Below the pieces are notes generated by a model, which saw nothing but the letters and a program-made list of their open reading frames with translations, did no database searches and was not told the DNA's origin. Shown here piece after piece: positions 3,589 through 3,661 of a DNA stretch of 64,000 nucleotides (positions are counted from its first letter, which is position 1; each line of letters starts with the position of its first letter). Location of the stretch: NCBI GenBank assembly GCA_025450585.1, contig JANWHD010000017.1:33668-97667 (forward strand). Reading direction: 5' to 3'. The translations under genes and the position numbers were made by a program. The DNA comes from Solirubrobacterales bacterium (lineage in GTDB: Bacteria > Actinomycetota > Thermoleophilia > Solirubrobacterales > 70-9).

Positions 3589-3661
3589 GCACCAGTGCCT
3601 TAATCGGTGAAAGGGCCGGCCTTAAAAGCCGGAGATCCGGGTTCGAGCCCCGGCTGGTGCA
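3589..3661 (+). tRNA. Atypical 73-nt tRNA with anticodon UAA (reads UUA/UUG) and type-I architecture (4-nt variable loop). The isotype is ambiguous.
   Basis: Hand-folded cloverleaf. Acceptor stem GCACCAG/CTGGTGC, U8. D-arm CCTT-AATCGGTGA-AAGG with G18G19. Anticodon stem CCGGC/GCCGG with loop C-U-[UAA]-A-A (anticodon at 3623-3625). Variable loop AGAT. T-arm CCGGG-TTCGAGC-CCCGG. Discriminator A at 3661, no encoded CCA. The anticodon loop, D-loop and A73 are Leu-like, but the long variable arm of bacterial tRNA-Leu is absent. Confidence 0.75.

Follow-up and report, generated by a model that had tools for sequence, protein, structure and literature searches.

The DNA analyzed here, referred to as the window, is a stretch of 64,000 nucleotides from a Solirubrobacterales bacterium; its G+C content is approximately 68-70%, and its genes were called by third-position GC. 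Near the beginning of the window, a class-I tRNA gene with the anticodon UAA is followed on the same strand by a gene for a divergent enzyme of the arginyl-tRNA synthetase (ArgRS) fold, which we designate RS-like and call the ligase, and then by a conserved block of genes for putative biosynthetic enzymes. An earlier note, made from the sequence of this DNA alone, had drawn attention to the combination of a leucine-type anticodon with a short variable loop. We compared the tRNA and the ligase with their relatives, and the results suggest that the tRNA is the dedicated partner of the ligase, that it is probably charged with an amino acid other than leucine, and that its anticodon may have been pushed to the rarest codon.

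ARAGORN called a tRNA with the anticodon taa at positions 3589-3661 of the forward strand, and the Rfam model RF00005 was matched over its whole length (1-71) with 72 bits (E=9e-14; gathering score 29). The tRNA reads GCACCAG-UG-CCUU-AAUCGGUGA-AAGG-G-CCGGC-CUUAAAA-GCCGG-AGAU-CCGGG-UUCGAGC-CCCGG-CUGGUGC-A. It is 73 nt long, and U8, G18G19, the T-loop UUCGAGC and A73 are all in place. The D-loop is AAUCGGUGA, with U20, and an A15:U48 pair is present. The 7-nt anticodon loop CUUAAAA gives U34, A35 and A36, and the variable loop AGAU has only 4 nt, so that the stem-loop of more than 10 nt that marks a class-II tRNA is absent. No CCA is encoded; TTG directly follows A73.

Loci of the same type as that of the window (window-type loci) were collected from 80 genomic and 18 metagenomic sequences, all from uncultured Solirubrobacterales or Thermoleophilia. 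Across 24 distinct orthologous tRNA sequences, 98.4% of the cells of the cloverleaf were paired. Eight pairs had changed on both sides, and the pair 6-67 was seen as AU, UA, CG and GC. The observed values of pairing and covariation were reached by none of the shuffled controls (0/500). Compensatory changes keep all four stems across at least 24 variants, and the anticodon loop of the window-type tRNAs invariably has 7 nt, U33 and a purine at position 37. We conclude that the tRNA gene is real, far beyond chance, and under selection. The cloverleaf of the earlier note (73 nt, U8, G18G19, T-loop, D-loop, CUUAAAA, A73 and AGAU) proved correct in every detail on direct reading. Computational checks of the kind that it had proposed also spoke for the tRNA: ARAGORN confirmed the gene, strand and anticodon, the 24 orthologues supplied the compensatory changes, and the covariance model returned a full-length match of 72 bits and not the score of a pseudogene, which the note had considered as an outcome.

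With A73 and the anticodon UAA, the window tRNA possesses two features expected of a tRNA-Leu, and the earlier note had suggested a tRNA-Leu derivative that lost its variable arm. However, the nearest bodies are class-I tRNAs of another family. The tRNA-Arg(UCU) of two related loci, L162 and L170, has exactly the acceptor stem (GCACCAG/CUGGUGC-A73) and the T-arm (CCGGG-UUCGAGC-CCCGG) of the window tRNA. Both of these tRNAs carry A20 (D-loop GGAUA), C35, U36 and A73, which together form the canonical arginine identity set. The variable loop of the L162 tRNA, GGAU, is reported as shared with the window-type body (the window copy itself has AGAU), and the D stem CCUC/GAGG is common to the window-type body and a tRNA(CCU) of locus L097. 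The marks of tRNA-Arg that are absent from the window tRNA are A20, replaced by U20, and C35 and U/G36, replaced by A35 and A36. Since its acceptor stem and T-arm match those of tRNAs(UCU) bearing A20, C35, U36 and A73, the window tRNA is best read as a descendant of tRNA-Arg(UCU) in which A20 was lost and the anticodon was rewritten, and not as a tRNA-Leu without its arm. Two ARAGORN calls in related loci without Rfam support were discarded: a 71-nt tRNA-Leu(GAG) (L022 51-121), which is probably a false positive, and an irregular tRNA-Arg(UCU) (L101 5595-5668), which is probably a false positive or else a decayed copy.

The anticodon varies among the relatives. In the 95 window-type loci with enough upstream sequence, the window included, it is UAA in 28 and UGU in 67, and the acceptor stem and T-arm are near invariant between the two types. 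In a neighbour-joining tree of the enzymes, the basal lineages have UGU; UAA is found in the clade of the window and in a small group nested beside UGU lineages. Therefore, one or two switches occurred in the window family. A third subfamily (enzymes P0306 and P0296; loci L165/L166, L167 and L168) has a tRNA(UAA) on a different body of 74 nt, with a 5-nt variable loop and, in L165 and L167, G73. Its enzymes are 49-54% identical to UCU-paired relatives and 37-42% identical to the window type. Because these enzymes are nearer to the UCU-paired ones and their tRNA body is different, UAA appears to have been reached independently at least twice. Bacterial LeuRS requires A73, and the G73 of the L165 tRNA(UAA) does not fit this requirement.

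In all of the 95 window-type loci, a tRNA of 72-73 nt lies 24-35 nt upstream of the ligase gene on the same strand. The genes upstream of the tRNA vary from locus to locus, and the downstream block is constant in order and orientation. The same layout, a tRNA and then the enzyme, was found in subfamilies 37-42% identical to the window enzyme: a tRNA(UCU) lies 24-30 nt upstream of the enzyme in L094, L161 (from the cultured Conexibacter stalactiti), L162, L169 and L170, and a tRNA(UAA) lies at the same distance in the third subfamily mentioned above. Among the control loci with a canonical ArgRS, 53 of 55 had no nearby tRNA; these loci, 55 out of 80 from a metagenome scan with a generic HIGH-motif pattern, include none of high GC and serve as a negative control only. 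In L166, the tRNA(UCU) is kept at the ancestral site, after the genes for an ABC-F ATPase and a tetratricopeptide repeat (TPR) protein and before a 448-aa gene and NucS, with no enzyme gene after it. The enzyme of this locus lies with a methyltransferase about 7 kb away and is preceded by a paralogous tRNA(UAA). A search of plasmids for the ligase gave no match.

Thus, the tRNA adjoins an atypical paralogue of the very synthetase that fits its body, both in the window-type loci (95/95) and in the distant subfamilies, and the anticodons UCU, UGU and UAA, which belong to different amino acids, stand on homologous bodies. Both features are those of a hybrid-identity pair. The proposal of the earlier note that the tRNA is an orphan dedicated to the adjacent synthetase-like enzyme gains comparative support from this linkage, from the distant subfamilies and from the L166 copy, which together suggest such a partnership. 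Four loci of distant RS-like members (L163, L164, L097 and L096) have no upstream tRNA on the same strand; a divergent tRNA(CCU) of L097 resembles the window tRNA in its body. In L171, a class-II tRNA-Ser(GCU) (559-650) is found about 320 nt upstream of the RS-like member P0164 and is probably unrelated.

The only Pfam match of the ligase was the ArgRS catalytic domain PF00750, over 63 residues with 25 bits. The profile search gave no match to the DALR domain (PF05746) or to the ArgRS N-terminal domain (PF03485). Against TIGR00456, the NCBIfam equivalog model of argS, the ligase scored 82 bits with a cutoff of 262, and it is not a canonical argS product by this measure; all RS-like subfamilies reached only 87-117 bits. 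The AlphaFold2 model had a pTM of 0.78, and Foldseek aligned it over the full length to the ArgRS structures 1bs2, 1f7u and 1iq0 with TM values of 0.6-0.67. The ligase is thus predicted to have the full three-domain ArgRS fold. Neither the HIGH motif (LHIGHLRN) nor the KMSKS-like SSKK loop varies within the window family.

The guanidinium group of arginine is bound by D118, Y313 and D317 in E. coli ArgRS and by the equivalent E148, Y347 and D351 in the yeast enzyme (PMC3956977). By sequence alignment, not by structural alignment, the corresponding residues of the ligase are N113, Q321 and A325, which are invariant in the window family. In the whole RS-like family, DGxPT(E/Q/H)HxR and GxEW replace the canonical Y...D motif, and the pocket positions vary. 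The window subfamily is distinguished at the pocket only by the change of D113 to N, which, if the alignment holds, takes one charge out of an otherwise conserved pocket. We scanned the enzyme alignment for covariation with the anticodon. A single column splits the UAA-type from the UGU-type enzymes, at a position that is not part of the anticodon-binding domain; no covarying residue was found within that domain.

The RS-like family is large, with 2342 close matches and 209 clusters at 50% identity (E below 1e-30), and the few matches that carry an organism name are from Solirubrobacterales. Full-text literature searches turned up no earlier account of this enzyme family, nor one of a bacterial tRNA of class I whose anticodon is UAA. 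Another idea was that the RS-like enzyme is the sole ArgRS of the lineage. The altered pocket, the varied biosynthetic contexts of the family and the canonical ValRS of the window argue against this idea. Since this ValRS scores 447 bits on its Pfam model, the housekeeping synthetases are not generally aberrant here.

Codon usage was analyzed with about 20 kb per genome. Of all sense codons, TTA has the lowest frequency (0.08 per 1000), and AGA, ATA and ACA belong to the rarest as well. Each of the three anticodons, UAA, UGU and UCU, reads a codon of this rare group. ACA was found at 0.22-0.72 per 1000 codons in the genomes with the UGU-type tRNA and at 1.3-2.1 in those with the UAA-type, so that its frequency is about 3-4 times lower in the former. 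The median share of ACA among the threonine codons was 0.8% in the UGU-type and 3.1% in the UAA-type genomes (Mann-Whitney p=5e-9, the genomes not being phylogenetically independent). In the contrast between the closest relatives, ACA accounted for 13 of 1030 threonine codons in the UGU-type and for 37 of 950 in the UAA-type (odds ratio 3.2, p=2.5e-4). Control codons ending in A did not differ between the two types (p=0.17). The difference in ACA tracks the anticodon, and not phylogeny or GC at the third position. The ACA deficit in the UGU-type genomes fits interference by the tRNA; an extra normal tRNA-Thr would predict the opposite.

A 2-fold depletion of TTA in the UAA-type genomes, which was seen at first, vanished under stricter gene calls and was retracted. 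The window itself has essentially no confident TTA codons, and no alignment column with ACA in the UGU-type and TTA in the UAA-type genomes was detected in the sequence analyzed. At column 432 of the ligase alignment (cluster c1), an invariant Thr is encoded by ACA, the codon of the enzyme's own tRNA, in 20 of 51 UGU-type genomes. This column holds about one fifth of the ACA codons counted in the UGU-type group and may reflect shared ancestry or an autoregulatory feature.

The features of the locus are collected in Table 1. A generic sigma-70 scan detected no consensus promoter upstream of the tRNA, and the putative promoter is a comparative hint only: in the related loci, a -10-like hexamer (TAGGAT, TATAGT or TATGGT) lies about 55-65 nt upstream, together with a hairpin and the sequence catagc. 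In the transcription unit, the tRNA gene appears to come first. The genes after the ligase overlap or are joined by very short gaps. The gene for the aminodeoxychorismate synthase of the PabAB type overlaps with its start the stop codon of the ligase gene (ATGA) and is found downstream in nearly all loci. Four junctions with overlaps of 4 nt of the ATGA or GTGA type at 5371-5374, 8998-9001, 9285-9288 and 10586-10589 suggest translational coupling from the ligase to the N-hydroxylase.

Table 1. Features of the tRNA-ligase locus (window positions unless another locus is named)
Feature	Position	Strand	Evidence or remark
Putative promoter and leader (inferred)	3520..3588	+	-10-like TAGGAT 3526-3531; hairpin GGGCUC...GAGCCC 3562-3581; CAUAGC junction before the tRNA
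Class-I tRNA, anticodon UAA, body of the tRNA-Arg(UCU) lineage	3589..3661	+	ARAGORN; Rfam 72 bits; covariation; homology
tRNA-ligase spacer, 30 nt, no terminator	3662..3691	+	24-35 nt in all related loci
Divergent ArgRS-fold ligase (RS-like), 560 aa	3692..5374	+	Pfam; TIGR00456; AlphaFold2/Foldseek; pocket alignment
Fused glutamine amidotransferase (GATase) and chorismate-binding enzyme (aminodeoxychorismate synthase, PabAB type)	5371..7518	+	TIGR00553 pabB 366 bits, cutoff 328
Histone deacetylase (HDAC)-fold amidohydrolase, nearest to acetylpolyamine amidohydrolases	7856..9001 (start uncertain; reading frame opens at 7577)	+	3q9b E=4e-32; conserved
Chorismate mutase type II fold protein, 96 aa	8998..9288	+	Family match; conserved
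Cytochrome P450	9285..10589	+	Family match; conserved
Flavin N-monooxygenase near L-lysine N6-monooxygenase NbtG	10586..11926	+	4d7e E=2.8e-60, 208 bits; conserved
Lipoprotein, pyrroloquinoline quinone (PQQ)-dehydrogenase-like beta-propeller; last conserved gene of the block	11936..13489	+	Family match; conserved
Conexibacter-type module	L161 9756-12507; L162 8683-10679; L167 5670-7708; L169 5701-7739; L170 5683-7682		Distinct from the window operon

A tRNA, a probably dedicated aminoacyl-tRNA synthetase-like enzyme and amino-acid biosynthesis genes are found together, as in a code-expansion cluster, and the biosynthesis genes may supply the charged amino acid. The neighbours in the operon point to lysine, polyamine and aminobenzoate chemistry. 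Judged by its family, the protein with the chorismate mutase fold could be a mutase or a pyruvate lyase acting on amino-chorismate. The aminodeoxychorismate synthase and the chorismate mutase fold had given the idea that p-aminophenylalanine is the charged amino acid. No dehydrogenase of the PapC type is present, and the flavoenzyme and the HDAC-fold protein favour lysine or polyamine chemistry, although p-aminophenylalanine is still a candidate.

Other members of the family stand in other surroundings. In the Conexibacter-type loci, the tRNA and the ligase are followed by one or two S-adenosylmethionine (SAM)-dependent methyltransferases, and also by an ATP-grasp enzyme wherever the neighbours were examined; an ABC-F ATPase and a TPR protein lie upstream. 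Distant RS-like members were found beside the subunits of a lysine 5,6-aminomutase (L097 5803-10143), beside a B12-dependent radical-SAM enzyme (L096 449-3713), beside a nonribosomal peptide synthetase (C-A-T-C) and another CM_2 protein (L164 7001-13915), and with a MetRS-like protein, an aminotransferase, an ornithine-cyclodeaminase-like protein and a baeRF release-factor-like gene (L163 3974-9690).

The remainder of the window is core chromosome, with tig, clpP, clpX, valS, folC, mreB, PBP2, rodA, rne, obg and proA. Between clpP (23334-23927) and clpX (39406-40467), the region 24000-39300 has a lower GC content (0.59-0.66 compared with about 0.69) and contains unmatched or poorly characterised genes (Trypco2, DUF4238, a TPR protein, a degenerate GGDEF and a GNAT). 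It looks like an inserted island, possibly related to defence. The second and last tRNA of the window is an ordinary tRNA-Cys(GCA) at 60833-60904, with 64 bits in Rfam.

We propose, with a probability of roughly 60%, that the tRNA serves as the dedicated partner of the ligase, carries an amino acid other than leucine, and has been driven to the rarest codon. The starting state was a tRNA-Arg(UCU) lineage upstream of a divergent ligase of the ArgRS family in Solirubrobacterales. In the lineage of the window, A20 was replaced by U20, C35 and U36 were lost, and the anticodon passed from UCU through UGU to UAA, with the acceptor stem and T-arm almost invariant. The ligase would recognise this conserved body and not positions 35 and 36 of the anticodon. 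ArgRS needs its tRNA for the activation of the amino acid (PMC2034488), and the ligase probably has the same requirement. The amino acid loaded would probably be arginine- or lysine-like, and the enzymes of the operon may make or tailor it. Once charged, the tRNA could be an activated substrate or carrier for the pathway, or could be delivered to ribosomes, or both. With the normal T-arm of an elongator, it can probably reach the ribosome, and the anticodon drifted to rarer codons probably because of this. Selection would have shifted it in steps, from AGA to ACA and finally to UUA (about 0.08 per 1000), toward the rarest sense codons and thereby limited misincorporation across the proteome. 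The reality, ancestry and linkage of the tRNA, its anticodon switching, the correlation with codon usage, and the fold and altered pocket of the enzyme are shown by the analysis; the charging enzyme, the amino acid and the use of the product are inferred. We lean slightly toward a carrier or cofactor role with a translational leak over deliberate mistranslation. Site-specific encoding is unlikely because the anticodon switched repeatedly; a carrier role or statistical mistranslation would agree with such switching.

Several observations weigh against this proposal. Of the 39 conserved columns in which the UGU-type genomes have ACA, 32 align with Thr and none with Arg. According to Saks 1998 (cited in PMC3923123), a tRNA with an Arg body and a UGU anticodon (C35G) works in E. 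coli as a tRNA-Thr, so that ThrRS may charge the UGU forms at least in part. The two groups do not differ in the rarity of TTA (0.08 per 1000), and there is no depletion specific to the UAA-type. The canonical Y and D of the pocket are lost in the whole divergent family, even in the members with an apparently normal tRNA-Arg(UCU), and arginine or a close analogue is possible as the substrate because only the change of D113 to N sets the window subfamily apart. The Pfam annotation of the operon genes contains no transferase that uses aminoacyl-tRNA (Fem/GNAT, CDPS, LanB/PEARL or L/F-transferase). Finally, the conserved gene order of the operon could reflect synteny of core genes that are in part unrelated, such as pabAB for folate.

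The main alternative is that the tRNA is an ordinary decoding tRNA produced by alloacceptor remoulding, an explanation that we regard as rather unlikely. A duplicated tRNA-Arg(UCU) would then be charged by ThrRS in its UGU forms and by LeuRS in the UAA form of the window, and would decode ACA and UUA normally; the enzyme would not use the tRNA, and the position upstream of an ArgRS-like gene would be a relic of an ancestral tRNA-Arg/argS-like transcription unit. The tRNA retains G1-C72 and C2-G71, which are determinants for E. coli ThrRS, and the window copy has A73 and A15:U48. E. coli LeuRS reportedly has no strict need for the long variable arm. The loss of A20 and C35 is expected once recognition of the ArgRS type is abandoned, ACA aligns with Thr, and the single change C35G suffices for the shift cited above from PMC3923123. 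However, one near-invariant body would have to be specific for ThrRS in one of two sister clades and for LeuRS in the other, and an extra tRNA-Thr(UGU) predicts an equal or higher use of ACA, which is 3-4 times lower. Moreover, UAA arose separately on a body with G73, which is unfit for bacterial leucine identity, and in L166 the enzyme has its own tRNA copy at a new site while the tRNA(UCU) was left behind. To our knowledge, there is no class-I tRNA-Leu in bacteria. The idea of a class-II tRNA-Leu(UAA) stripped of its long arm, which UAA and A73 had suggested, is already contradicted by the present data and hardly tenable: the orthologues are mostly UGU, the closest bodies are class-I tRNA-Arg(UCU), and the genuine tRNA-Leu of related loci is an 84-nt class-II tRNA of unrelated sequence. 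A decaying or non-functional pseudogene, or a mere RNase P processing signal for the operon mRNA, is very improbable. Co-transcription with the mRNA and the odd combination of anticodon and body could be taken as signs of it, but the Rfam score of 72 bits, the intact tertiary nucleotides, the compensatory changes in all four stems of at least 24 variants, and the 7-nt anticodon loop with U33 and purine 37 in every window-type tRNA speak against it.

If the charged tRNA is used by the ribosome, the pair might serve deliberate mistranslation or a natural expansion of a sense codon, by which arginine, or a non-canonical amino acid made by the operon, is inserted at UUA (ACA in relatives). Its function would be a stress-adaptive statistical mistranslation like that of tRNAProX/ProRSx, or that of a pyl-like cassette. 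The order of tRNA, synthetase and amino-acid-tailoring genes resembles pylTSBCD, the elongator T-arm is normal and identical to that of tRNA-Arg(UCU), and the depletion of ACA follows the UGU anticodon. A synthetase paralogue beside a tRNA of hybrid body and anticodon, with anticodons that vary, is a hallmark of tRNAProX (PMC10404621). Nevertheless, we consider this explanation unlikely: in about 20 kb per genome, there is no column that matches ACA of the UGU-type with TTA of the UAA-type, ACA aligns with Thr, every switch of the anticodon would mean the recoding of all target sites, and the window has essentially no confident TTA codons. The more specific form of it, in which the operon is a natural cassette whose enzymes build a non-canonical arginine- or lysine-like amino acid, whose ligase loads it onto the orthogonalised, Arg-derived tRNA, and by which it is inserted at the near-unused UUA (ACA or AGA in relatives), is quite improbable; if true, the genetic code of a widespread group of soil actinobacteria would include one more amino acid.

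If the tRNA and the ligase are indeed a dedicated pair, they would be a second, independent family of bacterial synthetase paralogues and tRNAs in which the link between body and anticodon is broken. The pair uses a class-I ArgRS scaffold, is universal in an abundant clade of uncultured soil Solirubrobacterales, and is present in its UCU form in cultured Conexibacter. The migration of the anticodon from UCU through UGU to UAA would be a natural one with a measurable footprint in codon usage, which bears on codon reassignment, and such pairs are candidates for naturally orthogonal pairs in the reassignment of sense codons. The analysis also flags an unannotated enzyme family of about 200 clusters (50% identity), now labelled 'arginine--tRNA ligase' or 'hypothetical', and tRNA annotation by the anticodon alone will name such genes tRNA-Leu or tRNA-Thr.

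N-hydroxylamine chemistry that depends on aminoacyl-tRNA or on synthetase-like enzymes is known from VlmL/VlmA of valanimycin and from the MetRS-like hydrazine synthetases, which act with a lysine N6-hydroxylase; neither has a dedicated tRNA gene. The likeness is that an enzyme resembling class-I synthetases is found here with an NbtG-type lysine N-hydroxylase, and the activated aminoacyl group might be transferred to an N-hydroxy amine. We detected neither a VlmA-like nor a cupin partner at this locus. In Streptomyces, bldA is a normal class-II tRNA-Leu(UAA) charged by LeuRS. The likeness to bldA is limited to a UAA anticodon that reads the rarest codon of a high-GC actinobacterial genome, whereas the tRNA described here is of class I, is derived from tRNA-Arg, and is linked to a ligase of its own. 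In pylTSBCD, the tRNA is followed by a dedicated synthetase and then by enzymes that build a lysine-derived amino acid. The gene order here is similar, and relatives of the ligase stand beside a lysine aminomutase, radical-SAM or ATP-grasp enzymes, or a lysine N-hydroxylase. In contrast to pylTSBCD, the codon is a sense codon and not UAG, close relatives differ in their anticodon, and the synthetase has no relationship to PylRS; moreover, the search of about 20 kb per genome gave no target genes in which a special codon is conserved.

The identity shift of Saks 1998, as cited in PMC3923123, shares the first step, C35 to G on an Arg body, and ACA still stands for Thr here. It differs in that the tRNA of the window-type loci is tied to an ArgRS-like gene, that a second shift to UAA followed, and that ACA became rarer and was not better served. 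The closest described system is tRNAProX/ProRSx, the mistranslation pairs of Streptomyces and Kitasatospora (PMC10404621). In both cases, a tRNA lies beside an atypical paralogous synthetase, has the body of the cognate isoacceptor and carries foreign anticodons that vary among relatives, the host is a high-GC actinobacterium, and rare codons are targeted. However, ProRSx is a class II ProRS with an unaltered pocket and without an operon, whereas the enzyme here belongs to the class I ArgRS family and has an altered pocket (D113 to N, no Y/D motif). Furthermore, the pair described here stands at the start of a conserved operon of several enzymes and occurs universally throughout a clade with small genomes, and mistranslation is only one candidate for its role.

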